A stretch of DNA of 64,000 bases from Psammoneis japonica (Eukaryota). Location of the stretch: NCBI GenBank assembly GCA_008632985.1, contig QPGO01000019.1:372001-436000 (forward strand), in the 5' to 3' direction. The notes beneath the pieces are model-generated. The model was given only the letters and a program-made list of their open reading frames with translations. It did no database searches and had not been told where the DNA came from. The translations under genes were made by a program, and so were the position numbers. Of this stretch, positions 2,740 to 50,898 are shown in pieces. How positions within the stretch are numbered: position 1 is the first letter of the stretch; every line of letters starts with the position of its first letter.

Positions 2740-5395
2740 CGGGTGCAAACATCGGCCATAAATTTTCGACCGTAGAACTTTGTTTATTTCCTCTACACAA
2801 AATTGCCAAGGTCACTTGGACAATTCACATGACATCCTCTACACAAAATTGCCAAGGTCACTTGGACAATTCACATGATAAAGAGTTCAGACTGCTTCTT
2901 GTCTAGACTCCCCATGACTTTTTTGCTGTGGAGAGTTGAGAGTTGCAGCATTTGTCATTGTGGGAAAGTGAAGTGAGGCACTTTTCAGGCATGCTTGCCA
3001 CATCATCTGCTGCATCACTTTGGCCCAAGAAGTGGTTGTGTGAGTTCTGATGTGCCACCCTGCCTGCCATCCTGGTGGCACTGAGCCAACTTGACACAAC
3101 CCCAGCTTGAGGCTTCTAAGTGGCACCTGCTGTGGTCCCCTGCCAGACCTTGACATTGTTGGCTGCTGCAAATGTCTCAGTCAGAACAGGGTTGGTGCCA
3201 ATGGTGCTGAGGTGATGTTCCTGTGCAGTCATTTCATTGAAGCCTTTGGAGCAGTTTTCCAAGCAAAAACCCATCAATGGAGTTGCTTCATGGCTGGATG
3301 TCATGCATGGTGCAAACCAGTGGAATTTTTGTCTCCCTGTGCTGAGCCAAAAGGTGGACTTGACTGGCTTGGGCCAGTCTTTTTCAATGACAGTTGGCAG
3401 TCTGCCATTCTGAGGTGCTCGAGGCCTCTTGCTGCATTGAAGGTGATGCCCACAGGCCACAATGCATGGGAAATGTCATTGCAGTCATGTGCCGTGTGCG
3501 TGCCACACACTTGAGATTCATCTCTCTTGCAGGGGTGCAGTGCACAGTGCATGGCCCACAGACTCATCTGCAGATTGGCGCCATTCTTGTCCTCAGCAGC
3601 TGTGTGCCACATCACCTTGCATGAAGTGCAAACCTTGTGGTCATTCAGATGCTGCAGCTTGTTCTTGACTGAGTTGATTCTCTGCTCATCTGCTGGTGTT
3701 TTTGATGCAACATTGGCAAACCTGGGCAATGGCAGGGAGACAACAGCATGTGCAGCTGCAACAGCCACCACCCTCCATGGCATTTGGCTGTTGTTGCACA
3801 GCAGTGTTGAAGAACACCCATCAATGCAAAATTGCAATGTGGACAAAAGTTGAGTGGCCAGCACAGTGGTTGTGTCAATTGCTGTTTCTGTTTTCTGTTG
3901 TCGCGCATGTGCTGCTCTTGCACTTTGATCAATGTGCAAATGATCAAACCACATGGCTGGTTTCAATGCTGCAAGAATTTGCAACCACAATGAGTGCCAA
4001 CTTCATGCATCAAATTGGTGCCATTGCTGTGCAGCAACTGCATGGCAGAATGACAAACTGTGGGCCAACACTCTCACCCAGCAATTTTTGAAAACAATTG
4101 CTCATGCCGTTGCCCTCACTCTGTGATGACTTTTAATTTTGGAGGGAAGTGGTGTCCCAAGTTCAACCATGTTGCTCTGTGTCCATGATGAGTGCTCAAA
4201 AGTGTGCCAGAACAGTGGGCGCTGTTGTTGTCAAGCACCAAACTTGAACAGGTTCTGAGAGTCTTCTGCTTCTCAAATTTGGGCAACTCATGCACCTGAA
4301 AATGCATTCTCTCATCAACTCTGACTTGATGGAACGTGCGACATTGTCAAAAGTCATTGGCATTTGTGCTGGCATTTGGGTTGGCCACACGCAGAGCAAC
4401 AGCTTTGACAAAGTTGGCAAAATGTCCTGCATCCATGCACAACAGAGAGCAAACCAGAAAGAATTGTTGTGATGTTCATGTTGGGCATGTCTCAATGAGT
4501 GAGCTGCTGGTGACAACAAGTGCCATGAGCTTCTCATCATCACACAATTCTAAAAAGTGTGCCAAAATGATGTCAGTTCCACCACTGCAAATTCTTTGTC
4601 CTGCATGATGTGCTCCTTCTGCATCTTGGTGTCTCATGTCCCTCCCACCACCCCACCACTTGGCAAAGTGGCCACTGGTGCCAAGGATTTTTTGTGGCAA
4701 GTCTGTCACAAAAAGCAGAAGCTCCTGCACAAACCTGTGTGAATGCCTGCAGCAATGAGTGGTGCAAACACCAAAATTGGGCTTCTGATTGCACTCAAAA
4801 TTGTCAAAGCACCAGCGACTTTGCCAGATTTCAGCACACTTTTGTGGGGAGCTGTGTGCATCTGTGTTCAAAGTGGACAAAAGAACAAATTCTCTTGGTG
4901 GTTCAGGCAGCCCAACAGAGAGGACTCCAGCCAGCTGCTCAAGTGTGGGTGTGTCCAAAAAATGAAGATGCTGTTGCAACCATTGCCAAGTGATTTTTGG
5001 TGGCATTTTGGGGCTCTGTGTGTGATGCGTTTGTGTGGAAATTGTGCAAATGCAGGTGCTGCAGTGCAGATGACAAGCATGGCAAAGAGATGAGCTAAAT
5101 GCATTCAAGACAAGGGCCAAAGACCAGCAAATGGAGAGCCCAAAAAGAAGAAAAAGGAGACCAGGAGACAACAAGTGGCAATTGAGGACAGAGAAAAGAG
5201 AAACATTTTGAGTTGGTGCAATGTTTTTAAAGAAGAAAGGTGTGTGAAGGAGGAAGGAATGCATGAATCAAATGCAAGCAAATGAACAAACAAACAAATC
5301 AGCTCCACACATCCACAACATTGACAGCATCAATCAATCTGATCATTTTGTAAAAATTTGAACTCTGCATGTTTGTCAAGAGCTGTTTGCACCTG
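2740..5395 (-). mobile_element. Heavily degraded repeat or element with a decayed minus-strand ORF; family unknown
   Basis: Nearly devoid of both TpA and CpG. Broken minus-strand ORFs at 3301-3990 and 4476-5264. Possible 12-bp terminal inverted repeat cgggtgcaaaca (2740) / tgtttgcacctg (5384-5395); this is weak. Confidence 0.35.
2789..2878. repeat. Tandem duplication, 46-bp unit x2
   Basis: tcctctacacaaaattgccaaggtcacttggacaattcacatga occurs at 2789 and 2835. Confidence 0.9.
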
Positions 5396-5779
5396 TCTTT
5401 GCATGGCTGATCATTGCCGCCAAAAAACACCTGATCTTCAAGCAAATTGGGTGTTTGTCAGTGGCTTGCCTTCTAAAGTGCTGGCTCTCCAAAGCAGAAG
5501 GGCCGCGGCAGTTCAGTGTTGCATGATGTGAGCACACTTTCCAAGCAAACTTGCAAGCATGCATTCTGCACAAAAATCCTTGCAGCAGAAGACCCTGTGT
5601 GCCCTCTGCCCTGCACATGCTCCCACTGTGTGCTCAACATGCCTTGGACACAACCTTTTTGTTTGGGGGTGGCAATGACCAAGAGGGACCCAAAGCTTGT
5701 TTTGTGACATTCTTGCCAGGCCAAAGCCCTCCTTGTCATTTGCTGTCTCCACTGCAGCTGTTCTTGGCCATTTTTGCCT

Positions 5780-6160
5780 CATCTCATCTGACAGTGGTTG
5801 TGCCAAACTTGGAGTGCAACTGCAAGAACAAACACCATGACTGCACTGAACAAGGCAATCTGAGCCAATTGCTGACAGCACTGCGTTGGCACCACATTTG
5901 CCAAGTTGTCAAGATGATTGCAATCACAATTCAAACAACCTTGTGCTTCCAGTTGCTTCAAGAAAAGCATCAAAGGTTTGCCAGAGTTTGCTCCTCAATG
6001 TGCTCCTGCAAGACTTTGGGGTCTCTCACCTGACTGTGGTTGCATTGAATTTGAGGCACAGCTGCAACAAACACCATTGCTGCACCCAACAAGGCAATCT
6101 GAGCCAGTCAATGACAGCACTGCATCAACATCACATTTGTCATGTCGTCAAGATGATTTG
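5780..6160 (-). pseudogene. Two degenerate tandem copies of the 3' end of the adjacent SLC35B transporter gene
   Basis: 6001-6160 aligns to 6283-6455 and shares caaacaccattgctgcacccaacaaggcaatc exactly. 5780-5925 is a more diverged copy. Many differences are CG->TG/CA and TA->TG/CA. Confidence 0.8.
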
Positions 6161-6282
6161 AAAATGCAGCTGGCCCCTCTCTCAAGCGACAAAAAAGAAG
6201 GAATCAGCGTCACCACAAAGACATTCTGTAAAGGGGGGCGTGGAATTAGAATGCACAAACATGCCTGAGCAACCTGTTTAGT

Positions 6283-7662
6283 TTATTCCTGCAAGACTTC
6301 AGGGTCTCTCGCCAGGCTGTAGTTGCGTCGAATCTGGAACGCAACCGTAGCAAACACCATTGCTGCACCCAACAAGGCAATCAGGGGCAATCCATGTCCA
6401 AAGACAATCGATGACAGCACCGTTGCCATCATTTGCCGAGTCGTCATTATGACTGTAAAGACTACTGGTCCATACTCTCGAATCACATAAAAGACACAGA
6501 GTTGACCGACGCAAGAGGCAAACGCAGCTTTTGAAAGGTACTTGAGTGCAACATGATTTTCCTTAAGAAAGTCAAAGACCACACCAATCTCGCCGGATGC
6601 AACGAGACTAATGCTTGTAAAGGAAATGGCAAAAAGGTTGACTGCCATCATCATTTGGAATGGGTCAACATTGCGTCGCCCATACGTATTGTATATTTTC
6701 CTTTGCCACTGACTGGTGAATGCATCACAAAAGAGAAAACCCAATATAAGTAGGTATCCAAGGAGTGAGCTACCACCCATATCGTTGAGAGCTTGAAAGC
6801 GACTTGCAGCTGAAAAGATAATTACGCCAATGGTAATCACGACGGCTTCCATGTATTCTCCCCACGAATATCTGGTGCCATTCAGAAGCTTTCCCACAAT
6901 CATTACCGATACAACCTTCAATGACTTGGAAACCATCATGACGGGAAATGAAATCAACCGGAGCGATGAGTACTGAAAAAGGCTGCTGAGAGTATTGCTA
7001 CAAGCACAGGGACTGAAGGCCCGAAGCGGAGACTTTTGGAAACTTCCCGAGAATCCGCGTTGATAAAAGACAACAAAAGAGCTCACAAGTACCGCAGCCA
7101 ATCGATTGGTCCATACGCAAAAGGCGGCAGAGGGAAATCGACCGTTCGGAACGCGATCCGTGGGTTTGAAATCCGTCGTCATGATGAGCTCTTTTTGGTA
7201 TCCCCATATCAAGTAAGACACCTGTAGGGTAGCAATGGACAATACAAGAGTAATTGCGCTCTTGACAAATGCACTGCTATGATCCCCACAGAGCAAAATG
7301 CTTAATCTTTCAACCAAGTCTTGTTCTTCGCTGCTTTCGGTCAATCTGTTACTCGTGCTCATATTATTTTCCTCCGCATCCTCAGCATTGACTGAGACTT
7401 CCGGCAGAAACCATTGTACAACTCTGTTTAGTAAACCCAGAAAATTTTGGTTAGTTCCAGCTCCGTACTCTTCTTCATCAACATGTAATGGCTCCAACAC
7501 TCGGATTGTCGCCAGCTCCTCTGGGTCCAGGGTTTCGCTGTTTGACCCTGACGGTGATGAGCCATCAGCTACTATTTCGTCGTTTGTGGGAAGAAGAGCT
7601 TCTGCCAATGTACTAAAAGTGTAAACAAAGGGATGGGAAATGCGTTGTAATGTGTCAGACAT
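6283..7662 (-). CDS. UAA-family nucleotide-sugar/PAPS transporter (SLC35B2/PAPST1-like)
   Basis: 459-aa multi-TM ORF with family motifs FQYSSLRLISFPVMMVSKSLKVVSVMIVGK, DAFTSQWQ and GQLCVFYVIREYGPVVFTVIMTTRQ. Confidence 0.9.
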   Translation of the reverse strand: MSDTLQRISHPFVYTFSTLAEALLPTNDEIVADGSSPSGSNSETLDPEELATIRVLEPLHVDEEEYGAGTNQNFLGLLNRVVQWFLPEVSVNAEDAEENNMSTSNRLTESSEEQDLVERLSILLCGDHSSAFVKSAITLVLSIATLQVSYLIWGYQKELIMTTDFKPTDRVPNGRFPSAAFCVWTNRLAAVLVSSFVVFYQRGFSGSFQKSPLRAFSPCACSNTLSSLFQYSSLRLISFPVMMVSKSLKVVSVMIVGKLLNGTRYSWGEYMEAVVITIGVIIFSAASRFQALNDMGGSSLLGYLLILGFLFCDAFTSQWQRKIYNTYGRRNVDPFQMMMAVNLFAISFTSISLVASGEIGVVFDFLKENHVALKYLSKAAFASCVGQLCVFYVIREYGPVVFTVIMTTRQMMATVLSSIVFGHGLPLIALLGAAMVFATVAFQIRRNYSLARDPEVLQE

Positions 7663-10600
7663 GTGGTTTCACACGAAAATCACACGGCGTTGGCTTCCGT
7701 TTGCACAAGCAACCGCAGCGCGATAGTTTCTCAGAATAGCAGACGTCGCGCAGGCACTCTTGAGCTCCATTTTCTTCATTCGAATTCAATGCAGACATCA
7801 TGGTGGATTGTGCTTTCCACTGTAAAGTAAAGCAGGAACGTCTCAATCAGTGGCTCTGACAGACAACAAAGCGGCGGATAAAGATAGATGGTGCGCAGAG
7901 GGATAAGCTGCTGGAAAAAAACGATTGTGCTGCTGCGGCACAACTTGATGACAAGGCGACCCGGCGCCATGTGGTCCTGTGCATTGGGGGCACAGACAGA
8001 CGCCACCCGCAGCAGCACATGCATGCATGCATTGCACTGCCACAGATGCCCAACACCAAAATCACAGTCTCGATGTGAAAAGCCTTCAATGACACCAATG
8101 TTGTCTGACTTCATTTCAAAAACATTCGCTTGTCCACTCGTGTTGGTAAATTTCAAGATTCTCTCGCTCTCGCTCGATTGCTCAAGAACAACAACCAAAA
8201 GCACAAAAACCCAAAACACCGGTCGAGTCAGGTCCCACGGTCGGACACACCCAGCATGAGGAATCACAGACAAGCCGGCCAGGCAGATGATGATGTCAAT
8301 GTTGCAGCATGATGATGCTCAGGGCAACAAGCAGGCGTGACAAAATCACATCATTGAAAGTTGAAAGTTGTGAGCGAGTTGACGATGGTGGCGGCGGGAA
8401 GAAGCGAGGTGTCTCGCAGTCACGGATGAGGACGATGTCTCCACGGAGTGTCTCCCAGTCTCACCCCTGTCCCTGCTTTTTGAGTGCTTCTCAAGTGTTG
8501 CAAGACTTAAAAACAAGATCCAATGGCAGATGTGTGGCTCAAGCACAGCTGGCAAACGTCGAGCTTGTGAGCACAAACGCAGAAAACTGCCACATGGTGT
8601 CGCTCCGTGCATTGAAAAACATGCATTGAGCTCCGTTTTCCACCTCAGATGTCAACTCATGCCAACTTGTTAATGACCACAGAGGACAAAATTTCCCCAA
8701 CCTGCCAAAATTGGGACAAACATCGAACGATGGTGTCGGGTGCTGTCAGCACGCTTTGAAAGATTTGCCATCAAGCACAAACTCTTTGCTGCCCTTGCAA
8801 TGGGTTGCGAGCATGCAAGGTGAGAGTTCATCTCTTTTGCCATGCATGTCTCTGCTGAAATTACAGTTGTCAATCTAGAGCCACCTGGGAGAGAATCCAA
8901 CTCCACCTTGGCAAAGGACCTGCTGTGTGGATCGGTTTCAAGAACCCCACAACAACTCCCACACGATTTTCATCACAAAAAGGGAGACAGAGTGGACAAT
9001 CTGCCAAACTGCCGTGATTCAAACTGTCGCTCAGCCGGCAGCTGCTTGCAAAGGTGGAAACTGTCATGTGACAATTGCTTTGCCACAACACACCCAGAGT
9101 GGGTCATTTGAAACTTGAAGACGAGGAGCCCCACAAACTCTTTCGATTGACCAACGACTCCATTGTCATTTTGCAGACTGGTGTTGAAGGGACAAGAACT
9201 TGAATCCCCACCTGCACACTGGAATCTGTTCAATTCCCCATGTTTGTTTCTTTGTGCATGCAACAAGGCTGCCACTGCAGGACTCATGGTGACTTCATGT
9301 GACACCACACAGATGAATCCAATTCTGTCAGTTCATCAGCAACTCTTTGTCATGTCCTTTCTCAACCTCACTTGCCACTGGAAGTCACACTTCCTCCCTC
9401 CATTGCTCCTGTGAGAACCACATCCTCCATCTTTTTTACCTTCCCAATGGCTTCCTCTTGTTTGGAACTTCCGTCCTTTCCTGTCGCTTTGTGAAAGGCA
9501 AGTTGCAAAATGAATGCACTTTGCATGTGATTTTCTTGGTTTTGTCATTGCTTGCGTGTCCTCTCTTGATTCAAACAGGTCTTTGTGTCATTTTTGAGTG
9601 CTCATTCCCAACCCCATGTTTGAATTTCTGTCAACGTTCCACTGTTTTGAATTTTGTGCCTTTGTCAGCCAATCCAACACACCAGTGAAGATTGCAATGT
9701 CATTCAAATCAATGTCAAACAACATGTTGCATCTCCTTGTGTCAGTGCATGCATTGTGCCTGCTTCCTGATGCAACATCTGTTTCACTCGGTTTGCCAAG
9801 TCGTGTCAAACCTCCTGTTTGTTTGCACAAATCCATGTCGCTCATTGTCTCATGTCAATTCATCCCTGTCTTAACAGGTCATTCTCTCTGCTTCCCCGAC
9901 ACCACATCTCTCCAATTGCTCTCTCTGTTGCCCAAATTGTCCAACCCACTTTCAATGGCTGCCAAAGGGTGTCATTGTCACTGAGATGTGGTTGCTGTGA
10001 GTCGCTCCCATTGTGGGAACGCGCGTTCCCTCTGCTGCAATCACATGCCGCCAATTGATGATCAAATTGGTCATTTTGCTGGTGGTGGTGTGGAATCACA
10101 TGGTGGTGCGGCAAGCTTTGCCTTCTTTGCCGAGGTTGTTTGCACAACCCCACTCTCCTTGCGGCCCAAATTCGAAGCCCTTTTAATTTCCTCGACGTTG
10201 GTGGTGGTGTTGGCGGTTTTGCGATTGCCTGTCATTTGCTTGTTCCTGCCTGCAATGCCTGCAGCATCAAGTTCCACCACCCCCGTCATGACTTGGGCTC
10301 TCAGTGGTGCAATGCCATCTGGCACAACCATGCCAGTTGCTGTCCCACCCTGATCAATCAGGGCTTCCTCTCTGAAGATGATGCTGTGCGTTGGTTGCGC
10401 CATCTGAACAACTTAAAGATTTTCTTCAATGACTGCAATGGGCGAATGCTTTTTGACAACAATGCAACACAGAACCAACTCGAGGAGATGCTGTCCAACG
10501 AGTGTCCTGAAGTCACTGTCATCATTTCGTTGGGCGTGATGTTTTGTGTGTGTGCCCACAAATGGAGGCATGGAGCATTCTTTGTTCCTGCCTGTCCAGA

Positions 10601-10847
10601 CAATCTATCGTGGGGAGGTGGTGTCGACAGGCACCTGCTTCACAAGTGCACCAAGAAAAGAGATGATGCCGTGGAGCCAAGGCATTCCACTGGGAACGAC
10701 CTGGGGTCTGACATCAAATGAAAATTCAAGCCTGCCAAAAGTGGGTGACTTTGCAGTTCCCCTTTGTTCACAATGCAACTTTCTTCCATGCAAGCAATGC
10801 ATTGTCAATTGGCCCTTTACACAAACCTGCTTTTTGCCTCTGCCAAC

Positions 10848-11657
10848 TCACTGCTTCACTGGTTTTGCATTCCAACAACCACTTGTTTGCATGCTTGCCA
10901 TGTCGAAATTGTGGACCAGACATGCCATGTTCTTTCGATCTGAATTCGTTTTGTTGGGCAAAGCTCGGTGCAACATTCTTGCATCAAAAACAAATGCAGT
11001 GCCTGCTTCTCCAACCAGCAACTGTTTTTCCAAACCCAACCTGACCAAGTGTCTTTCACGTTCCTTCTCATTCAATGTCACCTCACAACCATCCAGCCAC
11101 ATCTCAACTGCACCATTGTGCTCCGATGTGTCATCGAGGAACAGAAACATGGTGAAAATTTTGATGCCAGGTGACAATTTTGTTTCCACGCAATCACGAT
11201 GAATTTCCCCCTTTGACCAGAAGTTTGATCTTGAACTTGAAGCAGGAGCATTTGCCACTGTGTGCCGGGACATCTTTCTGCACAAATCACCTGCCAGGGG
11301 AAAGCCAGGAATTAACTCCAACATTTTTTCTGCCAACTCAATGCCTTCTGCCTTGTCCTTTTTGTTGATGGTGAACTCACTGACAAAACGGTGTCCTTCC
11401 TTCTCTCGCTTGCTGCTTGGTGCCTTGTTTGCCAGTGTTGTCATCTGGTTGAGCAGGGGTTGTGGTGTTTTGAATTTTTGCAAGCAGCCTTTTTTTCCTT
11501 CCTGGTGCACTCTTTCTTTGGACCCAGCTGTCTTGCTCTTGACGACATGAGATTTCATTTTGCCCGGTTGTGTTGGCAACTTGCCATGTTTCTGACACAA
11601 CGTTGTTGGCCAACGGGCAAATTTCTGGCATCCGTTGACAGAACACTTCCACGCCAT
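10848..11657 (-). pseudogene. 2OG-Fe(II) dioxygenase (PhyH/phytanoyl-CoA dioxygenase-like) with N-terminal CxxxGC..C..HG zinc finger; TpA-mutated
   Basis: MAWKCSVNGCQKFARWPTTLCQKHG zinc finger. IHRD (HxD), FLFLDDTSEHNGA and GEAGTAFVFDARMLHRALPNKTNSDR (distal His and Arg) match the PhyH-type pattern. No Tyr in the ORF. Confidence 0.75.
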
Positions 11658-11763
11658 TCTCTGAAAATGCCTGTTCCACCAAATCAAATGGCACCCAGTC
11701 TTTTTTTTTTTAAGTGAAACAGACCCAATTAAGTGAAAGTCCGCATCCATTGCTGTGCAACGA

Positions 11764-11998
11764 AAACGGCTTTCTTGCCAAATGTGTGTTGCCAATGGCA
11801 GTCCATCTGTCGGGTGCACCACAGACGTTTTTTTCGTGAACAGTCCCGCGTGATGTGATCTTTGTCGATCCTGTTCACTGCAACATAAACGGCTTTCTTG
11901 CCAAATGTGTGTTGCCAACGGCAGTCCATCTGTCGGGTGCACCACAGACGTTTTTTTCGTGAACAGTCCCACGTGATGTGATCTTCGTCGATCCTGTT
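11764..11998. repeat. Tandem duplication, ~123-bp unit x2
   Basis: aaacggctttcttgccaaatgtgtgttgccaa...gtcgatcctgtt occurs at ~11764 and ~11887. Confidence 0.9.
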
Positions 11999-12199
11999 TG
12001 CTGCATGATCTCATCAAATGGGTCATCCCAGCTATCTCAAAAGCGCAGAAAACAATTTTGTTGCACACTGCATTGTTTGTGTTGTTGTGAGACATTTTCA
12101 CATCGCCGCCGCGGCAGACACAAAGGAACAGCCACCATCCACCGTTCATTCCGCACCACAAACAAGCTCTTTTGGAAGAATGCACACAATGAACAATTG

Positions 12200-12430
12200 C
12201 AAATGACAGGCATCACTTTTTTGTTAATGCACCTGTCTGTCAACAGAGCAATTTGGTGTCACTTTTTTGTTGTTGCAACTGTGTGTCAACAAAGCAATTT
12301 GGTGTCACTTTTCTGTTGTTGCACATGTTTGTCAACAGAAGAATTTGGCATCAGTTTTTTGTCAACACACACATCTGTCAACAGATGCCTTTGGCATCAC
12401 TTTTTTATTTGTGCACTCAACACTGGCCTG
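12200..12430. repeat. Degenerate ~45-bp tandem repeats
   Basis: Recurring (tt)tggYRtcacttttt...gtcaaca motif, about five copies. Confidence 0.65.
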
Positions 12431-36868: not shown

Positions 36869-37347
36869 TCCTCATCTGCGTAGCACCAACAGATCAATGT
36901 CCTTCGTAAGCGATAGAGAGAGTCCTTAACAAGGAAGTAAGTTTGCCACGTAAGATCGTCGGATGAAGAAGATCTTGTTGTCAGAGATGGAAATGATGCA
37001 GAGATACACGTGTACCATCAGCGCAACGATTTCAATCGCGGTTGGGTGCGTCTGATGACGAGTATGGCTCCAACTTCCGAACGATTTTGCGGGGGGGGGG
37101 CGCTGTTTTTACTTAAGGCCCCCCCACGAAATTCAACCTCATTTAAGCACCTGTGACATCCCCCCCCCTCATACAAAAAATCCGTAGAAGTGACAGTCGT
37201 CGTCGCGCGCCATCTTTTTGGCCTTTTTCTGGAACGCTTTTCATAACAACGACCCTCATCGTTGTTGCAAGTGCGTGCTTCATACTTCATTGACACCTTT
37301 CCTTTTCAACAAGGGTTTGTCAAGAGCCCCTTTGTGTTCTCATTGCC

Positions 37348-40300
37348 ATGCCCACACTTGAAACAATGGGGCCGAAAAGCCAGTCAAGTCCTTCGCGTCT
37401 GAAGAAGTTGAAGCAAAATGCATCGAGGCCGACGCCCCACCCCTTGAACAAGTGCACGAAAGAGGGTGAAGCGGAGCGACGTAGAAAGCAAAAGGAAATT
37501 GACGAAGCTAACAAATTCAAATGGAGGTGCGATCAGTGCAAGAAAAGCAAGAAGATTCGTGAAAAAGTCACAACTCGGGTTGACTTCGGAACGAAAACGT
37601 GCAAACGGTGTGTCGCAGGGCCGGGTTGCAAGAAGGGTCACGACGACATGTGCCATGAGAATCCAAATGCTTCAAATTACAAGCCACCAGAGAAAATTGT
37701 TGCTCAAGTTCTGAAAGAGGCAGAGCCAGATTTCCTCATGGCACTGCCACAAGATTGCAGAAACAATCTCATCGCGAGGAGCCTTTTGGAAAGATCTTTT
37801 TTCTCTTCGCCGGAGGGAAGTGCAGAAAGTGCACAAGAAGCATTTTTCGATGTGTCTGAGTCCTTGGCAGATTCTAATCCACCCAGTGACAACAACAATT
37901 CAGCTGGGGATGCTCTCAGCAGCGTTGAATCCAAGGATGCATTGAAGCCGTTGCTGTGCAAGAAAATGACTGCGTCGCATCTAAAAAAAGCGACACCCGC
38001 CGTGATGTCGACGTGGAGCACAAGCAAGAAAGAGCAACTCGCTCAAGACAACATAAAAGTGCCGCTTCCAATTTTGGCATTGCTGGAATTCATTCACATG
38101 CAATGCCCAAGAGTTTGCACCGACTCCAATGGCGCCAAGAAGCTTGGTGGAGGTGAACAACGCATTTCTTGGTGCCGCGACCACTTTCCGCGTGGAAATG
38201 TTGCGTTCACGGCACCGTTGGCGGGTAGGAAAGAAAATGAAGTTCCCGACCCAACGCATGAGTCCATTCAAGGCTCAACAACATGTTTGACTCGGTGGGA
38301 ACTGAACATGCCAGACTTGCCATTGAAGTGTTTTTCATGCAGCGACGGATTTCTGGAGCACACGAGGGTGGAGTGCGGCGGCACCAGGTTTGCAAGCAGC
38401 GCGACGCCCGTTTTCAGAACAAAAGGTCACATGGGTTGGGAGCACGGCATCACATGCAAGTGCTCCAATTGTGGAGAGCTTGTCAAGTCGTGTGATGGTA
38501 GACTGCTGCGTTGTTCTCTACAAGACTGCGCACGTCGAAGCTTCCCAGTAGATCCCTTGTGTTGCTCGAAGCCATCCTTCTTCTTGCTTCACGAAGAGGT
38601 GTCCTTTCTGCTGGAGGAGGCTGCTCTAACAGAATCAAGTGCACAGTGGGTGTCACGAACGCTCTTCCGAAGTCAAAACCATCGGCACGAAGAACTGGAA
38701 CTGTCACATTGCAGCTCTGACAAGAGTTGCGAGGACAAACCTTTTCCAGACTTTCCATCAATTGAAGAGTGGCGAGGACAGTGTCCGCCATCAAGTGCTC
38801 AGTTGCCAGATCTTTGCAAAGCAGCCAACTCCTCCGATCTCACCGCGTGTGGCGTGAGCGACGACGACCGTCACAAGAGAGAAATGCAGTCATGCGGCTG
38901 CGAAACTTCTACAGCCTTCGATCATACCCACGCAATGTTGAGCAACTACCCATCATCACTGGGCGCTCAAGCTTGTGCCACTCAGTCAACTGATGCGGGA
39001 TTCATTGCCTGGCTTGGACTTGTCGACTCTACCGCAATGTCAGACAGTGCCCACCACATCGAGCAAACTGCAAGACGGCCAAACTTTAACCCGAAGCATG
39101 TGCACACGGATGCATGGCCCAATCTTGATCCATTCTTCAAGATGACACACGGATTTGCAACAATCGGTCGACTTGGCTCATTCCATGCAATTCAGCGCGT
39201 CACCAAGTTCATGCGGAAAGATCACAAGGATTTCAACAAAGCTCTCTGCTCTTTCTTGAGCTGCCTGCACAGTCTGAACCAAGAGGATGAAGCAACCGTA
39301 GTGGCAACACTGCGAGACGGGACAATGAATGGCCGCATCCACCAGCCTGATGAGATCTCGGATTTGCAGCACAGCAAGAAGTGGATGGACCGCTGTGGGC
39401 AGTGCATCCGAAAGATTCCTGTTCCAGGAGAGCTCGCGAGGATTAAGTTGAGGGACTGGTGGTGCCCACACAAAGTGAGCAACAGTGATGGTGAGCCAGC
39501 AGGACAAGGAGAGCTGGACAATGGAAAAACCCTGTTCATGGAAGGAGCGAGACAAGCAGTGAGAGCGTTGACGGAAAAAGCTCAGCATCTGCCAGAGATT
39601 GTTGGCGACTGCCACAAGAAACTCACCGCATTTGCCCGATCGAAACACAAACTACCGCGACACATTTCTGAAAAGGGTGAGTCTTCATTGGAGAAGTTTC
39701 ACCATCTGCTAGCTCATTTTGGAAACATGGGCATGCGGCGAACGCTCGCCGACAGTTTGAACCTCCGCGGCACGTGTCGATGCAATCTCAAGCTGTGGCA
39801 CAAACTGTTCGGAAGAAATGCACCCGAGATCCCAAGCCATTTTCAAACTGAACCCATTCATCACAACCATCTCAAGTTGCTAGAGATCAACCGGAGGTCC
39901 GCCAAGCATGGATCCAAAGCACCGCGGCATGAGAATCTACGAGATTGCCCGGAGTGCAGGGGCGAAGAGTTTTTGTCCGAGCACCTTTTGTCGCAAAGAA
40001 AGAGACGAGCACAACATCCACCCCATCCAACCAACAGTCGCTGCCAATGCCCCAAATGTGCTGCAAATCCGATGCCTCTTCCTCACATCCAACGAGCCAT
40101 TTCACGTGAGCAGTCGGCGGCATCTGCAGTGGCGCCAAATGAAACGGCACCTGTGAACAATGACACTGGTGACTTTGACGCTGCTGAGTTTGGTGTCGAC
40201 TTTGATGAGCAAGAGTGTCATTCTGTGTTTGAAGACACTCCTCCTCAAGAGCAACTTCCCCAAGAAACACGAATGATCCGCGACTTCGCCGTGCAGGACG

Positions 40301-40668
40301 CCTTCCAAAGGCATCAAGAATTGAATTCCGCACCGCCTGCCCCAATCCTCCCCATGCCGGCACCAGCTCTGCCATTGCTGCCTCTGCTGCCTGTTCCTGT
40401 AACAAATTTGCCAATGTCATTGCAGCAACCTTTGGGCCCACCCACTGTTGCGTCGTCGATGCCACATTCAACCTGCTGCCAACCCGTTTCTCTTGGGACA
40501 GCGAGTTTTGCAGCATCTGCTCCTGTGCTGCCATCCGCTGTCACTCCAGCTACAAAGAGACGAAAGGTCAAAGAAGAAGAACACTGCTGTGAGGGAAGAA
40601 AAAATCATGTCGAAAATGGTCGTCGGGGGCGGGTCGCTCATGCCTTGTGGTGCAACCGAGGAAAGTAA
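37348..40668 (+). pseudogene. Putative DDE transposase (unit 1); frame open but Tyr codons almost all mutated
   Basis: Motifs FDHTH, HTDAWP, RLGSFHAIQR and KGESSLEKFH suggest D-D-(xxH)-E order (Dada/MULE-like, tentative). I find only two Tyr in 1106 aa. Confidence 0.6.
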
Positions 40669-40939
40669 GGCGTTCTTGGTGTCTTTTTGTTTTGTTCTTT
40701 TTTCCATTTGTGTTGGTGCACATCACATTGCCACTTCCCAGCATAGATGCATTAATTCAGGATTGGGATCCAACACAGTGGCAACAAACATTTTACACTT
40801 GTACAATTACACCGGTCCACCACACCAACCATCACCGCGCCGCACCGACCAACACCAACGGCACGGACAGCACGGACACCAAGGTCCCATAAAGCCGGTA
40901 GCCTGTCGCAGCCCCACAGCAGAAACAAAGGAACAGAAA

Positions 40940-41400
40940 CAACAAAATTGAGAACACGACAACAAAGAAACAGACCCATGACACTCGACACATTTCTGTT
41001 GCCTCACATCAATGCTTTTGGAGTGCCCTCGTGGTGCTTGTGGTTGATTGCACTAAGCAACACTGTCGGCCGAAAACAAAACAAAACACTGTCCAATTAA
41101 AAGGAACAGAAACAACAGAAATGTAGAAGGTGCCATCAAAGAAACAACCCCATCATGCTCGACACATTCATGTCACCTTGTCTTAATGATTTCGGTGCAT
41201 CCTCACAGTCCTTGTGGTTCATTGTCAGCAGCAATCTTGTCGGCGGCAGAAAACAAAACTCAAAACACACGCTCCATTTAAACACAATGGAAACAAAAGA
41301 AATTTAGGAGACACCAACAAAAAAATACAACCATCACACTCAACACAGTCTTTGCACCTTACATCAATGCTGTTGACCCTCGCATCGTCACAGTGATGGT
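40940..41400. repeat. Diverged ~180-bp subterminal repeats (about 2.5 copies, present in each array unit)
   Basis: Recurring ccatca..ctcRacaca...Yaatg...ttgtggtt.attg...tgtcggc..aaaacaaaac blocks. Confidence 0.6.
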
Positions 41401-41939
41401 CGATTCATGAACGGAGCCAGTCGCCATTGTGCTGCGAAGGTTCGAGGGTGGTGCGGTAAGTGCGCGTGAGGATTTTTCCTGCTGCATGCAGTGTCTTTTC
41501 TGTCTGTCCGTTAGCGAGTGGTCTTAAACGTTGCTGAGTCATAAATGGCTTGAAGACAAAATTGTTCTTAAATGTTGCATCGTCACAATTGGGGATTGCT
41601 GAGTCATAATTCACTGAAGGCATGATGTGATTGGCTGAAAATACAGCGCACAAGAATGGGACAACGGAAAGAGATTTTGCGGGGGGGGGGCGCTGTTTTT
41701 ACTTAAGGCCCCCCCCACGAAATTCAACCTCATTTGAGCACCTGTGACATCCCCCCCCCCTCATGCAAAAAATCCGTAGAAGTGACAGTCGTCATCGCGC
41801 GCCATCTTTTTGGCCTTTTTCTGGAACGCTTTTCATGACAACGACCCTCATCGTTGTTGCAAGTGCGCACTTCATGCTTCATTGACACCTTTCCTTTTCA
41901 ACAAGGGTTTGTCAAGAGCCCCTTTGTGTTCTCATTGCC

Positions 41940-44900
41940 ATGCCCACACTTGAAACAATGGGGCCGAAAAGCCAGTCAAGTCCTTCGCGTCTGAAGAAGT
42001 TGAAGCAAAATGCATCGAGGCCGACGCCCCACCCCTTGAACAAGTGCACGAAAGAGGGTGAAGCGGAGCGACGTAGAAAGCAAAAGGAAATTGACGAAGC
42101 TAACAAATCCAAATGGAGGTGCGATCAGTGCAAGAAAAGCAAGAAGATTCGTGAAAAAGTCACAACTCGGGTTGACTTCGGAACGAAAACGTGCAAACGG
42201 TGTGTCACAGGGCCGGGTTGCAAGAAGGGTCACGACGACACGTGCCATGAGAATCCAAATGCTTCAAATTACAAGCCACCAGAGAAAATTGTTGCTCAAG
42301 TTCTGAAAGAGGCAGAGCCAGATTTCCTCATGGCACTGCCACAAGATTGCAGAAACAATCTCATCGCGAGGAGCCTTTTGGAAAGATCTTTTTTCTCTTC
42401 GCCGGAAGGAAGTGCAGAAAGTGCACAAGAAGCATTTTTCGATGTGTCTGAGTCCTTGGCAGATTCTAATCCACCCAGTGACAACAACAATTCAGTTGGG
42501 GATGCTCTCAGCAGCGTTGAATCCAAGGATGCATTGAAGCCGTTGCTGTGCAAGAAAATGACTGCGTCGCATCTAAAAAAAGCGACACCCGCCGTGATGT
42601 CGACGTGGAGCACAAGCAAGAAAGAGCAACTCGCTCAAGACAACATAAAAGTGCCGCTTCCAATTTTGGCATTGCTGGAATTCATTCACATGCAATGCCC
42701 AAGAGTTTGCACCGACTCCAATGGCGCCAAGAAGCTTGGTGGAGGTGAACAACGCATTTCTTGGTGCCGCGACCACTTTCCGCGTGGAAATGTTGCGTTC
42801 ACGGCACCGTTGGCGGGTGGGAAAGAAAATGAAGTTCCCGACCCAACGCATGAGTCCATTCAAGGCTCAACAACATGTTTGACTCGGTGGGAACTGAACA
42901 TGCCAGACTTGCCATTGAAGTGTTTTTCATGCAGCGACGGATTTCTGGAGCACACGAGGGTAGAGTGCGGCGGCACCAGGTTTGCAAGCAGTGCGACGCC
43001 CGTTTTCAGAACAAAAGGTCACACGGGTTGGGAGCACGGCATCACATGCAAGTGCTCTAATTGTGGAGAGCTTGTCAAGTCGTGTGATGGTAGACTGCTG
43101 CGTTGTTCTCCACAAGACTGCGCACGTCGAAGCTTCCCAGCAGATCCCTTGTGTTGCTCGAAGCCATCCTTCTTCTTGCTTCACGAAGAGGTGTCCTTTC
43201 TGCTGGAGGAGGCTGCTCTAACAGAATCAAGTGCACAGTGGGTGTCACGAATGCTCTTCTGAAGTCAAAACCATCGGCACGAAGAACTGGAACTGTCACA
43301 TTGCAGCTCTGACAAGAGTTGCGAGGACAAACCTTTTCCAGACTTTCCATCAATTGAAGAGTGGCGAGGACAGTGTCCGCCATCAAGTGCTCAGTTGCTG
43401 GATCTTTCGATCTCACTGCGTGTGGCGTGAGCGACGACGACCGTCACAAGAGAGAAATGCAGTCATGCGGCTGCGAAACTTCTGCAGCCTTCGATCACAC
43501 CCACGCAATGTTGAGCAACTACCCATCATCACTGGGCGCTCAAGCTTGTGCCACTCAGTCAACTGATGCGGGACTCATTGCCTGGCTTGGACTTGTCGAC
43601 TCTACCGCAATGTCAGACAGTGCCCACGGCATCGAGCAAACTGCAAGACGGCCAAACTTTAACCCGAAGCATGTGCACACGGATGCATGGCCCAATCTTG
43701 ATCCATTCTTCAAGATGACACACGGATTTGCAACAATCGGTCGACTTGGCTCATTCCATGCAATTCAGCGCATCACCAAGTTCATGCAGAAAGATCACAA
43801 GGATTTCAACAAAGCTCTCCGCTCTTTCTTGAGCTGCCTGTGCAGTCTGAACCAAGAGGATGAAGCAGCCGTAGTGGCAACACTGCGAGACGGGACAATG
43901 AATGGCCGCATCCACCAGCCTGATGAGATCTCGGATTTGCAGCACAGCAAGAAGTGGATGGACCGCTGTGGGCAGTGCATCCGAAAGATTCCTGTTCCAG
44001 GAGAGCTTGCGAGGATTAAGTTGAGGGACTGGTGGTGCCCACACAAAGTGAGCAACAGTGATGGTGAGCCAGCAGGACAAGGAGAGCTGGACAATGGAAA
44101 AACCCTGTTCATGGAAGGAGCGAGACAAGCAGTGAGAGCGTTGACAGAAAAAGCTCAGCATCTGCCAGAGGTTGTTGGCGACTGCTGCAAGAAACTCACC
44201 GCATCTGCCCGATCGAAACACAAACTACCACGACACATTTCTGAAAAGGGCGAGTCTTCATTGGAGAAGTTTCACCATCTGCTGGCTCATTTTGGAAACA
44301 TGGGCATGTGGCGAACGCTCGCCGACAGTTTGAACCTCCGCGGCACGTGTCGATGCAATCTCAAGCTGTGGCACAAACCATTCGGAAGAAATGCACCCGA
44401 GATCCCAAGCCATTTTCAAACTGAACCCATTCATTACAACCATCTCAAGTTGCTAGAGATCAACCGGAGGTCCGCCAAGCATGGATCCAAAGCACCGCGG
44501 CATGAGAATCTACGAGATTGCCTGGAGTGCAGGGGCGAAGAGTTTTTGTCCGAGCACCTTTTGTCGCAAAGAAAGAGACGAGCACAACATCCACCCCATC
44601 CAACCAACAGTCGCTGCCAATGCCCCAAATGTGCTGCAAATCCGATGCCTCTTCCTCACATCCAACGAGCCATTTCACGTGAGCAGTCGGCGGCATCTGC
44701 AGTGGCGCCAAATGAAACGGCACCTGTGAACAATGACACTGGTGACTTTGACGCTGCTGAGTTTGGTGTCGACTTTGATGAGCAAGAGTGTCATTCTGTG
44801 TTTGAAGACACTCCTCCTCAAGAGCAACTTCCCCAAGAAACACGAATGATCCGTGACTTCGCCGCACAGGACGCCTTCCAAAGGCACCAAGAATTGAACT

Positions 44901-45241
44901 CCGTGCCGCCTGCCCCAATCCTCCCCATGCCGGCACCAGCTCTGCCATTGCTGCCTCTGCTGCCTGTTCCTGCAACAAATTTGCCAATGTCATTGCAGCA
45001 ACCTTTGGGCCCACCCACTGTTGCGTCATCGATGCCATGTTCAACCTGCTGCCAACCCGTTTCTCTTGGGACAGCGAGTTTTGCAGCATCTGCTCCTGTG
45101 CTGCCATCCGCTGTCACTCCAGCTACAAAGAGACGAAAGGTCAAAGAAGAAGAACACTGCTGTGAGGGAAGAAAAAATCATGTCGAAAATGGTCGTCGGG
45201 GGCGGGTCGCTCATGCCTTGTGGTGCAACCGAGGAAAGTAA
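41940..45241 (+). pseudogene. Putative transposase (unit 2), disrupted
   Basis: CGA->TGA at 43260-43262 and a 19-bp deletion near 43407 relative to unit 1. Confidence 0.7.
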
Positions 45242-46510
45242 GGCGTTCTTGGCATCTTTTTGTTTTGTTCTTTTTTCCATTTGTGTTGGTGCACATCACA
45301 TTGCCACTTCCCAGCGCAGATGCATTAATTCAGGATTAGGATCCAACACAGTGGCAACAAACATTTTACACTTGTGCAATTACACCGGTCCACCACACCA
45401 ACCATTGCCGCACCGTACCGACCAACATTAACGGCACGGACAGCACGGACACCGAGGTCCCATAAAGCCGGCAGCCTGTCGCAGCCCCACAGCAGAAACA
45501 AAGGAACAGAAACAACAAAATTGAGAACACGACAACAAAGAAACAGACCCATGACACTCGACACATTTCTGTCACCTTATGTCAATGCTTTTGGAGTGCC
45601 CTCGTGGTGCTTGTGGTTGATTGCATTTAAGCAACACTGTCGGCCGAAAACAAAACAAAACACTGTCCAATTAAAAGGAATGGAAACAACAGAAATGTAG
45701 AAGGTGCCATCAAAGAAACAACCCCATCATACTCGACATATTCATATTACCTTGTCTTAATGATTTCGGTGCGTCCTCACAGTCCTTGTGGTTCATTGTT
45801 AGCAGCAATCTTGTCGGCGGCAGAAAACAAAACTCAAAACACACGCTCCATTTAAACACAATGGAAACAAAAGAAATTTAGGAGACACCAACAAAAAATA
45901 CAACCATCATACTCAACACAGTCTTTATACCTTATGTCAATGCTGTTAACCCTCGTATCGTCACAGTGATGGTCGATTCATGAACGGAGCTAGTCGCCAT
46001 TGTGCTGCGACGGTTCGAGGGTGGTACGGTAAGTGCGCGTGAGGATTTTTCCTACTGCATGCAGTGTCTTTTCTGTCTGTCCGTTAGCGAGTGGTCTTAA
46101 ACGTTGCTGAGTCATAAATGGCTTGAAGACAAAATTATTCTTAAATGTTGCATCGTCATAATTGGGGATTGCTGAGTCATAATTCACTGAAGGCATGATG
46201 TGATTGGCTGAAAATACAGCGTACAAGAATGGGACAACGGAAAGAGATTTTGCGGGGGGGGGGCGCTGTTTTTACTTAAGGCCCCCCCACGAAATTCAAC
46301 CTCATTTAAGCACCTGTGACATCCCCCCCCCTCACACAAAAAATCCGTAGAAGTGACAGTCGTCGTCGCGCGCCATCTTTTTGGCCTTTTTCTGGAACGC
46401 TTTTCATGACAACGACCCTCATCGTTGTTGCAAGTGCGTGCTTCATACTTCATTGACACCTTTCCTTTTCAACAAGGGTTTGTCAAGAGCCCCTTTGTGC
46501 TCTCATTGCC

Positions 46511-49500
46511 ACGCCCACACTTGAAACAATGGGGCCGAAAAGCCAGTCAAGTCCTTCGCGTCTGAAGAAGTTGAAGCAAAATGCATCGAGGCCGACGCCC
46601 CACCCCTTGAACAAGTGCACGAAAGAGGGTGAAGCGGAGCGACGTAGAAAGCAAAAGGAAATTGACGAAGCTAACAAATTCAAATGGAGGTGCGATCAGT
46701 GCAAGAAAAGCAAGAAGATTCGTGAAAAAGTCACAACTCGGGTTGACTTCGGAACGAAAACATGCAAACGGTGTGTCACAGGGCCGGGTTGCAAGAAGGG
46801 TCACGACGACACGTGCCATGAGAATCCAAATGCTTCAAATTACAAGCCACCAGAGAAAATTGTTGCTCAAGTTCTGAAAGAGGCAGAGCCAGATTTCCTC
46901 ATGGCACTGCCACAAGATTGCACAAACAATCTCATCGCGAGGAGCCTTTTGGAAAGATCTTTTTTCTCTTCGCCGGAGGGAAGTGCAGAAAGTGCACAAG
47001 AAGCATTTTTCGATGTGTCTGAGTCCTTGGCAGATTCCAATCCACCCAGTGACAACAACAATTCAGCTGGGGATGCTCTCAGCAGCGTTGAATCCAAGGA
47101 TGCATTGAAGCCGTTGCTGTGCAAGAAAATGACTGCGTCGCATCTAAAAAAAGCGACACCCGCCGTGATGTCGACGTGGAGCACAAGCAAGAAAGAGCAA
47201 CTCGCTCAAGACAACATAAAAGTGCCGCCTCCAATTTTGGCATTGCAGGAATTCATTCACATGCAATGCCCAAGAGTTTGCACCGACTCCAATGGCGCCA
47301 AGAAGCTTGGTGGAGGTGAACAACGCATTTCTTGGTGCCGCGACCACTTTCCGTGTGGAAATGTTGCGTTCACGGCACCGTTGGCGGGTGGGAAAGAAAA
47401 TGAAGTTCCCGACCCAACGCATGAGTCCATTCAAGGCTCAACAACATGTTTGACTCGGTGGGAACTGAACATGCCAGACTTGCCATTGAAGTGTTTTTCA
47501 TGCAGCGACGGATTTCTGGAGCACACGAGGGTAGAGTGCGGCGGCACCAGGTTTGCAAGCAGCGCGATGCCCGTTTTCAGAACAAAAGGTCACATGGGTT
47601 GGGAGCACGGCATCACATGCAAGTGCTCCAATTGTGGAGAGCTTGTCAAGTCGTGTGATGGTGGACTGCTGCGTTGTTCTCTACAAGACTGCACACGTCG
47701 AAGCTTCCCAGTAGATCCCTTGTGTTGCTCGAAGCCATCCTTCTTCTTGCTTCACGAAGAGGTGTCCTTTCTGCTGGAGGAGGCTGCTCTGACAGAATCA
47801 AGTGCACAGTGGGTGTCACGAACGCTCTTCTGAAGTCAAAACCATTGGCACGAAGAACTGGAACTGTCACATTGCAGCTCTGACAAGAGTTGCGAGGACA
47901 AACCTTTTCCAGACTTTCCATCAATTGAAGAGTGGCGAGGACAGTGTCTGCCATCAAGTGCTCAGTTGCCAGATCTTTGCAAAGCAGCCAACTCCTCCGA
48001 TCTCACCGCGTGTGGCGTGAGCGACGACGACCGTCACAAGAGAGAAATGCAGTCATGCGGCTGCGAAACTTCTACAGCCTTCGATCATGCCCATGCAATG
48101 TTGAGCAACTACCCATCATCACTGGGCGCTCAAGCTTGTGCCACTCAGTCAACTGATGCGGGATTCATTGCCTGGCTTGGACTTGTCGACTCTGCCGCAA
48201 TGTCAGACAGTGCCCACCACATCGAGCAAACTGCAAGACGGCCAAACTTTAACCCGAAGCATGTGCACACGGATGCATGGCCCAATCTTGATCCATTCTT
48301 CAAGATGACACACGGATTTGCAACAATCGGTCGACTTGGCTCATTCCATGCAATTCAGCACGTCACCAAGTTCATGCGGAAAGATCACAAGGATTTCAAC
48401 AAAGCTCTCTGCTCTTTCTTGAGCTGCCTGTACAGTCTGAACCAAGAGGATGAAGCAGCCGCAGTGGCAACACTGCGAGACGGGACAATGAATGGCCGCA
48501 TCCACCAGCCTGATGAGATCTCGGATTTGCAGCACAGCAAGAAGTGGATGGACCGCTGTGGGCAGTGCATCCGAAAGATTCCTGTTCCAGGAGAGCTCGC
48601 GAGGATTAAGTTGAGGGACTGGTGGTGCCCACACAAAGTGAGCAACAGTGATGGTGAGCCAGCAGGACAAGGAGAGCTGGACAATGGAAAAACCCTGTTC
48701 ATGGAAGGAGCGAGACAAGCAGTGAGAGCATTGACGGAAAAAGCTCAGCATCTGCCAGAGATTGTTGGCGACTGCTGCAAGAAACTCACCGCATCTGCCC
48801 GATCGAAACACAAACTACCGCGACACATTTCTGAAAAGGGCGAGTCTTCATTGGAGAAGTTTCACCATCTGCTGGCTCATTTTGGAAACATGGGCATGTG
48901 GCGAACGCTCGCCGACAGTTTGAACCTCCGCGGCACGTCTCGATGCAATCTCAAGCTGTGGCACAAACCATTCGGAAGAAATGCACCCGAGATCCCAAGC
49001 CATTTTCAAACTGAACCCATTCATTGCAACCATCTCAAGTTGCTAGAGATCAACCGGAGGTCCGCCAAGCATGGATCCAAAGCACCGCGGCATGAGAATC
49101 TACGAGATTGCCCGGAGTGCAGGGGCGAAGAGTTTTTGTCCGAGCACCTTTTGTCGCAAAGAAAGAGATGAGCACAACATCCACCCCATCCAACCAACAG
49201 TCGCTGCCAATGCCCCAAATGTGCTGCAAATCCGATGCCTCTTCCTCACATCCAACGAGCCATTTCACGTGAGCAGTCGGCGGCATCTGCAGTGGCGCCA
49301 AATGAAACGGCACCTGTGAACAATGACCTGGTGACTTTGACGCTGCTGAGTTTGGTGTTGACTTTGATGAGCAAGAGTGTCATTCTGTGTTTGAAGACAC
49401 TCCTCCTCAAGAGCAACTTCCCCAAGAAACACGAATGATCCGCGACTTCGCCACACAGGACGCCTTCCAAAGGCACCAAGAATTGAATTCCGTGCCGCCT

Positions 49501-49830
49501 GCCCCAATCCTCCCCATGCCGGCACCAGCTCTGCCATTGCTGCCTCTGCTGCCTGTTCCTGCAACAAATTTGCCAATGTCATTGCAGCAACCTTTGGGCC
49601 CACCCACTGTTGCGTCGTCGATGCCATGTTCAACCTGCTGCCAACCCGTTTCTCTTGGGACAGCGAGTTTTGCAGCATCTGCTCCTGTGCTGCCATCCGC
49701 TGTCACTCCAGCTACAAAGAGACGAAAGGTCAAAGAAGAAGAACACTGCTGTGAGGGAAGAAAAAATCATGTCGAAAATGGTCGTCGGGGGCGGGTCACT
49801 CATGCCTTGTGGTGCAACCGAGGAAAGCAA
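46511..49830 (+). pseudogene. Putative transposase (unit 3), disrupted
   Basis: TGA at 47831 (shared with unit 2), TGA at 49169, a 1-bp deletion near 49327, and terminal TAA->CAA at 49828. Confidence 0.7.
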
Positions 49831-50898
49831 GGCGTTCTTGGCATCTTTTTGTTTTGTTCTTTTTTCCATTTGTGTTGGTGCACATCACATTGCCACTTCC
49901 CAGCGTGGATGCATTAATTCAGGATTAGGATCCAACACAGTGGCAACAAACATTTTACACTTGTACAATTACACCGGTCCACCACACCAACCATTGCCGC
50001 ACCGCACCGACCAACATTGACGGCACGGACAGCACGGACACCGAGGTCCCATAAAGCCGGCAGCCTGTCGCAGCCCTGCAGCAGAAACAAAGGAACAGAA
50101 ACAACAAAATTGAGAACACGACAACAAAGAAACAGACCCATGACACTCGACACATTTCTGTTGCCTTACATCAATGCTTTTGGAGTGCCCTCGTGGTGCT
50201 TGTGGTTGATTGCATTGAGCAACACTGTCGGCCGAAAACAAAACAAAACACTGTCCAATTAAAAGGAATGGAAACAACAGAAATGTAGAAGGTGCCATCA
50301 AAGAAACAACCCCATCATACTCGACACATTCATATTACCTTGTCTTAATGATTTCGGTGCGTCCTCACAGTCCTTATGGTTCATTGTTAGCAGCAATCTT
50401 GTCGGCGGCAGAAAACAAAACTCAAAACACACGCTCCATTTAAACACAATGGAAACAAAAGAAATTTAGGAGACACCAACAAAAAAATACAACCATCATA
50501 CTCAACACAGTCTTTATACCTTATATCAATGCTGTCAACCCTCGTATCGTCACAGTGATGGTCGATTCATGAACGGAGCTAGTCGCCATTGTGCTGCGAC
50601 GGTTCGAGGGTGGTACGGTAAGTGCGCGTGAGGATTTTTCCTACTGCATGCAGTGTCTTTTCTGTCTGTCCGTTAGCGAGTGGTCTTAAACGTTGCTGAG
50701 TCATAAATGGCTTGAAGACAAAATTATTCTTAAATGTTGCATCGTCATAATTGGGGATTGCTGAGTCATAATTCACTGAAGGCATGATGTGATTGGCTGA
50801 AAATACAGCGTACAAGAATGGGACAACGGAAAGACCTCAAACATAAAGTTTATTAAAGACTAAATAACATATAAATTTGGGTGTTCGCAAAGATTTGA

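Follow-up and report, generated by a model that had tools for sequence, protein, structure and literature searches.

RIP in ascomycetes changes C to T and creates TpA. It rarely acts on coding duplicates in Neurospora crassa (PMC7296669). A process directed at TpA itself is described in the preprint text for the alga Bigelowiella natans, where two viral inserts yielded 231 de novo mutations, of which 230 were A/T>G/C and fell at TpA without exception (Mettrop et al., bioRxiv 10.64898/2026.01.13.699255). The DNA that is hit there is integrated NCLDV and virophage DNA, the de novo rate is raised about 1000-fold and varies between lines, and ADAT2 is proposed to be responsible (bioRxiv 10.64898/2026.01.13.699255). 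ADAT2 of amphioxus is described as editing DNA (PMC10354150), and transposon methylation in the diatom Phaeodactylum tricornutum as DNMT5-dependent (PMC9998398). No report of TpA erasure in a diatom was found in full-text searches, which mostly leave out subscription journals; the supplements of the B. natans preprint may hold tables on context or across species.

Our window, the whole 64,000-nt stretch that was analysed (C16:372001-436000, from contig QPGO01000019.1 of the 91-Mb genome of the diatom Psammoneis japonica), contains a transporter gene with two decayed tandem copies of its 3′ end beside it (Table 1). The explanation that we hold likely is that these copies lie in a block, presumably of silent chromatin, where a mutator acts on TpA according to position.

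Table 1. Features of the window, with coordinates counted from its first letter
Feature	Coordinates	Strand	Remarks
Putative decayed gag-side relic, Ty1/copia family	2942..4476	-	tblastn and collinear tblastx pieces; identification transitive
TA- and CG-erased block	2905..6228	.	7 TA left, each in a TAA of the + strand; CG o/e 0.1; single-copy at present
Copy A of the gene tail, tandem sister of B	~5770..5930	-	deletion as in B, more decayed; 0/4 aligned TA and 1/9 CG kept
Copy B of the gene tail	5964..6198	-	17-nt deletion, small insertions; 0/10 aligned TA and 1/10 CG kept
Non-coding spacer	6199..6282	.	84 nt, 3 TA kept; probably 3′ UTR
Duplicated source segment	6250..6494	-	last ~70 codons, stop codon and part of the 3′ flank
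SLC35B2/PAPS-transporter-like gene	6283..7662	-	source of copies A and B; intact single frame, 459 aa, UAA family
Dispersed-repeat member	9200..12000	.	test set; 50 genomic matches, 30 copies analysed
Young triplication, 4.59-kb units	37083..50834	+	units 97.5% alike; used as clock

The gene has an open frame that matches the full UAA domain (PF08449, E 2.5e-33), and its homologues are diatom proteins 42-52% identical to it, several of them named PAPS transporter B2. Its TpA o/e is 0.57-0.59. The tail at 6283-6494 has 8 TA in 212 nt, of which four (6463, 6456, 6348 and the one in the stop codon) could change silently. All 12 aligned homologues have a tyrosine at the position of Tyr447, and the gene is therefore the ancestral state; the TAC codon of this residue, with its TA at 6320, reads CAC in both copies. 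The initial annotation had quoted a string from the gene and one from a copy, both present (at 6308-6357 and 6025-6071), and had held that the copies are mutated while the source gene is intact, and that the gene polarises the changes as TA to TG/CA. All of this is borne out by the tyrosine codon and by the TA counts of gene and copies.

The copies were recovered by self-BLAST (6004-6113 against 6287-6396, 80%, E 2e-21; 5782-5919 against 6024-6158, 77%, E 2e-22), and their local alignment scores to the gene are 199.5 for B and 130 for A, whereas the 200 shuffles run for each reached no more than 65.5 and 63.5. Since they share the 17-nt deletion and the small insertions, A and B descend from a single first duplicate; since they differ in outcome at 6 of the 9 CG sites that they share, much of the decay postdates the second duplication. 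Copy B has four clean TA>TG/CA changes (6279, 6284, 6320 and 6348), the other six TA lying in weakly aligned ends or in gaps or reading as transversions, and copy A has two among its four aligned TA, with 6348 left unscored beside an insertion; one clean change is common to both. The CG sites changed at 9 of 10 positions in B and 8 of 9 in A, that is 17 of 19 when pooled, and all 17 went to TG/CA, the pattern of 5mC CpG decay. From 5770 to 6198 there is no TA in 429 nt, where 17.7 would be expected at the rate of the gene (P=2e-8). With no more than 4+2 clean TA changes at the locus, the argument has to be carried by controls from further afield, and the locus itself is a small, low-power example of the process.

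Two other origins were rejected. Copy B matches the transporter gene at E 3e-24 and the best of nine paralog loci (those compared, from 14 matches) at 0.014; no paralog fits better, so the fragments do come from this gene, as had been supposed. Contigs assembled from the short reads of run X1, which may be the source sample, reproduce 2849-6097, 6070-6380 and 6353-7952 with at most one difference and at single-copy depth, and an assembly artefact was discarded accordingly.

The seven TA of the erased block compare with about 130 expected (TpA o/e 0.04). Its edge, at about 6228, falls in non-coding DNA 55 nt past the transporter stop codon, and a TA-keeping island follows (6229-7904). A contig from run X2 (6273-7907) almost matches this island, which is a hint only because X2 is not on record as RNA; with the same proviso, a second X2 contig (34-2645) covers the left-hand gene, and the lack of X2 cover over 2801-6000 is no evidence either way on expression. 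The left boundary of the block is formed by an open frame of at least 867 aa (2-2605, +) with normal TA and no Pfam match.

The initial annotation spoke of a repeat block. The copies do adjoin repeat-derived DNA; the block, however, appears to be what is left of a decayed Copia element and is single-copy today, and its reading as a present high-copy repeat was rejected on finding only six matches of 47-160 nt elsewhere and single-copy depth. The relic matches gag-like frames at three other loci (tblastn E 2e-16 to 6e-12), where the gag-like frame precedes a pol that is 40-66% like RVT_2 (PF07727) Copia proteins. None of 48 Copia pol proteins matched the block directly, so the Copia label is transitive; there is no Pfam match in 2905-6228, and the gag-like frame gained no name from homologue search or Pfam, the Atlas giving unnamed clusters only. 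Tyrosines of an outside Copia pol protein align 93 times in relics, to Cys in 36 cases, to His in 30 and to Tyr in 2. P0134, one of the 48 outside Copia pol proteins, contains 1.0% Tyr where the others have about 3.8%, and 3.5% Cys where they have about 1.5%; the process may also have been at work in another assembly.

Gene copies elsewhere in the genome served as controls; they were picked from a BLAST table after their TA ratios were known, and so not blind. A transporter copy on C107 keeps 2 of 42 TA, 38 of the 42 having gone to TG/CA, and 35 of 55 CG. A C1 copy of the transporter paralog on C41 keeps 0 of 36 TA and 1 of 62 CG, with a strand skew of 23 TG to 6 CA (p=0.002). Both are dead and lie inside TA-erased blocks, and together they keep 2/78 TA. 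The reverse change, TG/CA>TA, occurs at 1/174 and 1/158 sites of these pairs, and AA/TT changed at 5/189 in the C107 pair. The C1 copy (L044, G000:C1:~108200-110100) has tandem repeats of its 3′ end, in the layout of the window's copies.

Two dead DNMT copies in ordinary DNA (19 and 2 stops) keep 53/79 and 19/24 TA, in sum 72/103, and TpA transitions in them run at 0.06-0.08, as in other contexts; the difference from the hit pairs is strong (Fisher test, p=7e-23). Other duplicates in ordinary DNA keep 43/49, 57/67, 84/99 and 45/53 TA (about 85%) and are intact, and two segments are partly hit (8/27 and 10/24 kept). Two further pairs agree, namely 25223-25943 against 22424-23145 in the window, TA-normal versus TA-erased (1/10 TA kept), and C107/C223 (0/4); the Fisher test does not include them, as their sources were not established as genes. 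Dead and duplicated copies in ordinary DNA thus keep TA, so that neither duplication nor lost function suffices for its loss: what decides is position, rather than homology or the loss of selection. It may simply be that the pseudogenes which escaped are transcribed. The suggestion of targeting by location is in this way upheld, and purifying selection, which had been offered as an alternative, fails as the whole explanation, given the 72/103 TA of dead pseudogenes outside the erased blocks. The gene enjoys the protection of selection as well, but the asymmetry can be explained without it.

Some further duplicates may be mentioned. A 2.6-kb exostosin-like duplicate (window 31622-34174 and G000:C16:443693-446257, 95%, 40 kb apart) keeps TA in both members. 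Several DNMT copies (L017-L019, L023, L026, L029 and L030, on C297, C301 and C28) lie in TA-erased DNA and are 32-38% like the intact L013/L014; the genome has 27 DNA_methylase matches, subfamilies pooled. These sequences suggest that DNMT may be amplified or mobile in this genome.

Depletion of synonymous TA in the duplicated part of the gene had been set as a test. The tail keeps 3/16 and the rest of the gene 35/95 (p=0.25), and the tail is too small to settle the matter alone; the nominally lower value may reflect mild leakage of mutation into it. Three pooled source genes are not depleted relative to 15 reference frames (OR 0.93, p=0.74).

In 13 arbitrary 10-kb stretches of the genome, 52 of 260 sampling windows have a TA o/e below 0.15, and the distribution is bimodal with sharp edges. 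CG-poor sampling windows number 36 among these 52, with 10 keeping CG, and 0 among 175 that are TA-normal. As CG-poor DNA appears only where TA is gone and some TA-poor DNA keeps CG, TA loss leads and CG loss trails in the same places. The CG loss looks like a separate, slower process, and by its sequence pattern CG>TG/CA would probably be ordinary 5-methylcytosine decay in the same blocks. The surviving TA differ by context, at 0.35 of normal for TTAA, 0.20 for CTAA/TTAG and 0/1273 for ATAT (226 depleted and 206 normal sampling windows from non-random loci).

The distribution bears on the view that nothing is targeted, and that a genome-wide bias of TA and CG toward TG/CA erodes all unselected DNA while genes keep TA by selection only. 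Genes do have a TpA o/e near 0.55, and T at synonymous positions stands at 0.32 before A and 0.60 before C/T, both as such a bias would have it. Yet TA is retained in dead pseudogenes, and also between the genes of gene-rich regions, which largely refutes this view; the bimodality, the sharp edges (one of them in the non-coding DNA past the transporter stop) and the persistence of synonymous TA in genes also count against it, as does the spontaneous spectrum described for P. tricornutum, which is AT-biased with CG the most mutable step (PMC6604790). We find it barely credible.

In the young triplication 47 of 80 TA columns vary, all to TG/CA, as do 39 of 234 CG columns and 9 of 755 TT/AA columns, a relative TA excess over TT/AA of about 50-fold. 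The process is therefore recent and specific to TA, not to WA. These counts are unpolarised, since TA lost in two units at once makes polarisation by majority unreliable. The triplication, whose three units stand in tandem, carries a 1124-aa frame (+) with no Pfam match, and the final complete 500-nt bin of its first unit shows a greater loss of TA than in the other two (12 vs 26 and 26), as a moving front would leave it.

Among the 30 copies of the dispersed repeat, 121 columns mix TG and CA without CG. Pairwise concordance between copies is 0.61, against 0.63 expected under independence, and within each copy TG about equals CA, so that both strands are affected. Independent copies with balanced products point to mutation in chromosomal DNA after insertion rather than to an RNA intermediate being edited. 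In 29 copies the strand hit at one site does not predict the strand hit at its neighbours (r=0.014±0.028 at 2-10 bp and 0.004±0.019 at 11-30 bp), although many small rounds could hide weak strand runs. One copy, L077, keeps 48 of 75 TA, and compared with it the other copies keep 161 of 1812. It sits in a 15-kb TA-rich transposon pile at the end of C267 (G000:C267:~66000-81437; L104, L105 and L077), where nested transposons with near-normal TA and CG include a gypsy-like pol, a copy of the window's 18952-21864 element and a copy of the 9.2-12 kb repeat; these may be young insertions or a refuge spared by position from the mutator. A frame of the dispersed repeat (10851-12212, -) has a weak PhyH/2OG-Fe(II) oxygenase match (E 3e-4, just under cut-off).

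These data speak to error-prone patch synthesis of the polymerase-eta type, with A>G at WA, after 5mC deamination in methylated DNA. It would explain why CG and TA change in the same blocks, and such a pairing of CG and TA changes is known from somatic hypermutation. Its footprint at WA is missing, as AA/TT barely change in the triplication or in the C107 pair; TA loss runs ahead of CG loss, as the kept fractions of the C107 copy show, and strand runs are absent. We rate it very improbable.

A RIP-like process, triggered by homology and mutating both partners, could leave the same asymmetry if selection purged the chromosomes in which an essential gene was hit. The copies did arise by tandem duplication, many of the TA-erased blocks consist of repeats, diatoms are described as carrying RID-related DNMT4 genes (PMC9998398), and mutagenesis in bursts followed by selection would leave no synonymous trace. 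However, both members of duplicates 80-96% alike retain TA, dead and selection-free ones included; one copy of a high-copy repeat is rich in TA (L077), and the change runs opposite to RIP. Neighbouring sites are also uncoordinated, against the mostly single-stranded clusters described for RIP (PMC7296669), a contrast that many small rounds could blur. We therefore consider such a process quite improbable. The initial annotation had separated the locus from RIP by its spared source gene. The separation stands and its ground does not: coding duplicates of N. crassa are rarely RIPed, so the contrast cannot rest on the window locus, and rests instead on the opposite direction, the unhit duplicates and the lack of strand runs.

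For position-dependent mutation of TpA, the course of events reads as follows. The 3′ end of the gene was duplicated in tandem, acquired the 17-nt deletion and was duplicated again, an order that the shared deletion bears out; the copies came to lie between the transporter gene and the presumed Copia relic, inside a mutator block. There a local mutator turns TpA into TpG or CpA, with one strand event per site and on both strands, gradually and separately in each copy, as comparison of the copies shows. Membership of the block is set by position, and not by a partner or by deadness, as the controls show. We think it quite probable that the block is silent chromatin nucleated by transposons, whose edge would halt at the transcribed gene.

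From sequence, A>G is indistinguishable from T>C on the other strand. As a real possibility, advanced tentatively, the chemistry may be deamination or another miscoding lesion of the TpA adenine in double-stranded DNA, as proposed for B. natans. An ADAT2-like gene is present (HAE..PCIMC with a downstream CRNDRFGGCGS exon), and so are a TadA-like gene and two A_deamin loci; ADAT2-like genes are universal, all of these are housekeeping genes, and none of them proves anything. Profile searches for Tet_JBP and MT-A70 gave no match in the genome and none in the control genomes either, and are uninformative.

Thymine chemistry with the same positional targeting would be the converse: an oxidised or modified T in TpA might pair with G, or T:G repair of methylated DNA might over-correct TpA to C:G. 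T:G mismatches are resolved to C:G in bacterial very-short-patch repair. Since TA>CA on one strand reads TA>TG on the other, every count agrees with it just as well, and the restriction of CG-poor sampling windows to places of TA loss ties the process to probably methylated DNA. The repair version requires a source of TA mismatches about 50 times above that of TT/AA, and CG still decays in the same blocks. On balance we regard thymine chemistry as unlikely. If adenine is the target after all, diatoms and chlorarachniophytes might share a genome defence: silenced chromatin would recruit a natural enzyme that edits TpA adenine in double-stranded genomic DNA, destroying tyrosine codons and inactivating the contents of the domain. 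This would be a chromatin-steered 'reverse RIP' and a natural counterpart of engineered adenine base editors; we offer it as speculation and consider it doubtful.

If position-dependent TpA mutation is correct, the range of a TpA-specific mutator, so far seen in two viral inserts of a single rhizarian alga, extends to a diatom, where about a fifth of the sampling windows are affected; foreign origin would then not be the trigger, since host-derived DNA is hit. Eukaryotes would then have, next to RIP, a second mutational defence that runs the opposite way and is targeted differently, and it would be present in organisms amenable to knockouts and methylome work. In practical terms, the annotation of repeats, the dating of transposons and the calling of pseudogenes are all distorted in genomes of this kind. 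The value of the window locus is its sharp erasure edge so close to the stop codon of a working gene.

Among known systems, 5mC CpG decay in diatom transposons (DNMT5; as described in PMC9998398) resembles what we see in that CG>TG/CA is confined to repeat-derived blocks; it covers only the CG half, and methylation here is read from sequence. By its sequence signature the process appears to match the TpA hypermutation reported so far in one unrelated alga, B. natans, as far as the text of that preprint goes. Mutation rates were measured there, while ours is a comparison of copies. The host here is a diatom, a stramenopile, and not a rhizarian; erasure is near complete, with a block o/e of 0.04 against 0.45 in their NCLDV region; copies of host transporter genes and transposons are hit, not only foreign DNA, though the preprint itself allows other targets; and CG decays in the same blocks, the term CpG being absent from their main text. 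In both organisms A:T>G:C changes fall almost only at TpA (here 47/80 TA vs 9/755 TT/AA in the triplication, and 38/42 in the C107 pair), are confined to regions and affect both strands, apart from our one skewed pair, and both have long-term TpA-poor clusters that include transposon domains. With RIP (ascomycetes, RID/DNMT4), as the cited texts describe it, the process has in common a hypermutation by transitions at a specific dinucleotide, through which repeats are killed and genes are for the most part spared (PMC7296669, PMC9998398). Unlike RIP, it destroys TpA and almost never creates it, it shows no homology trigger, duplicates in ordinary DNA keeping TA in both partners, dead ones included, and its changes are uncoordinated between neighbours at all distances, where RIP is described as forming single-strand clusters (PMC7296669).
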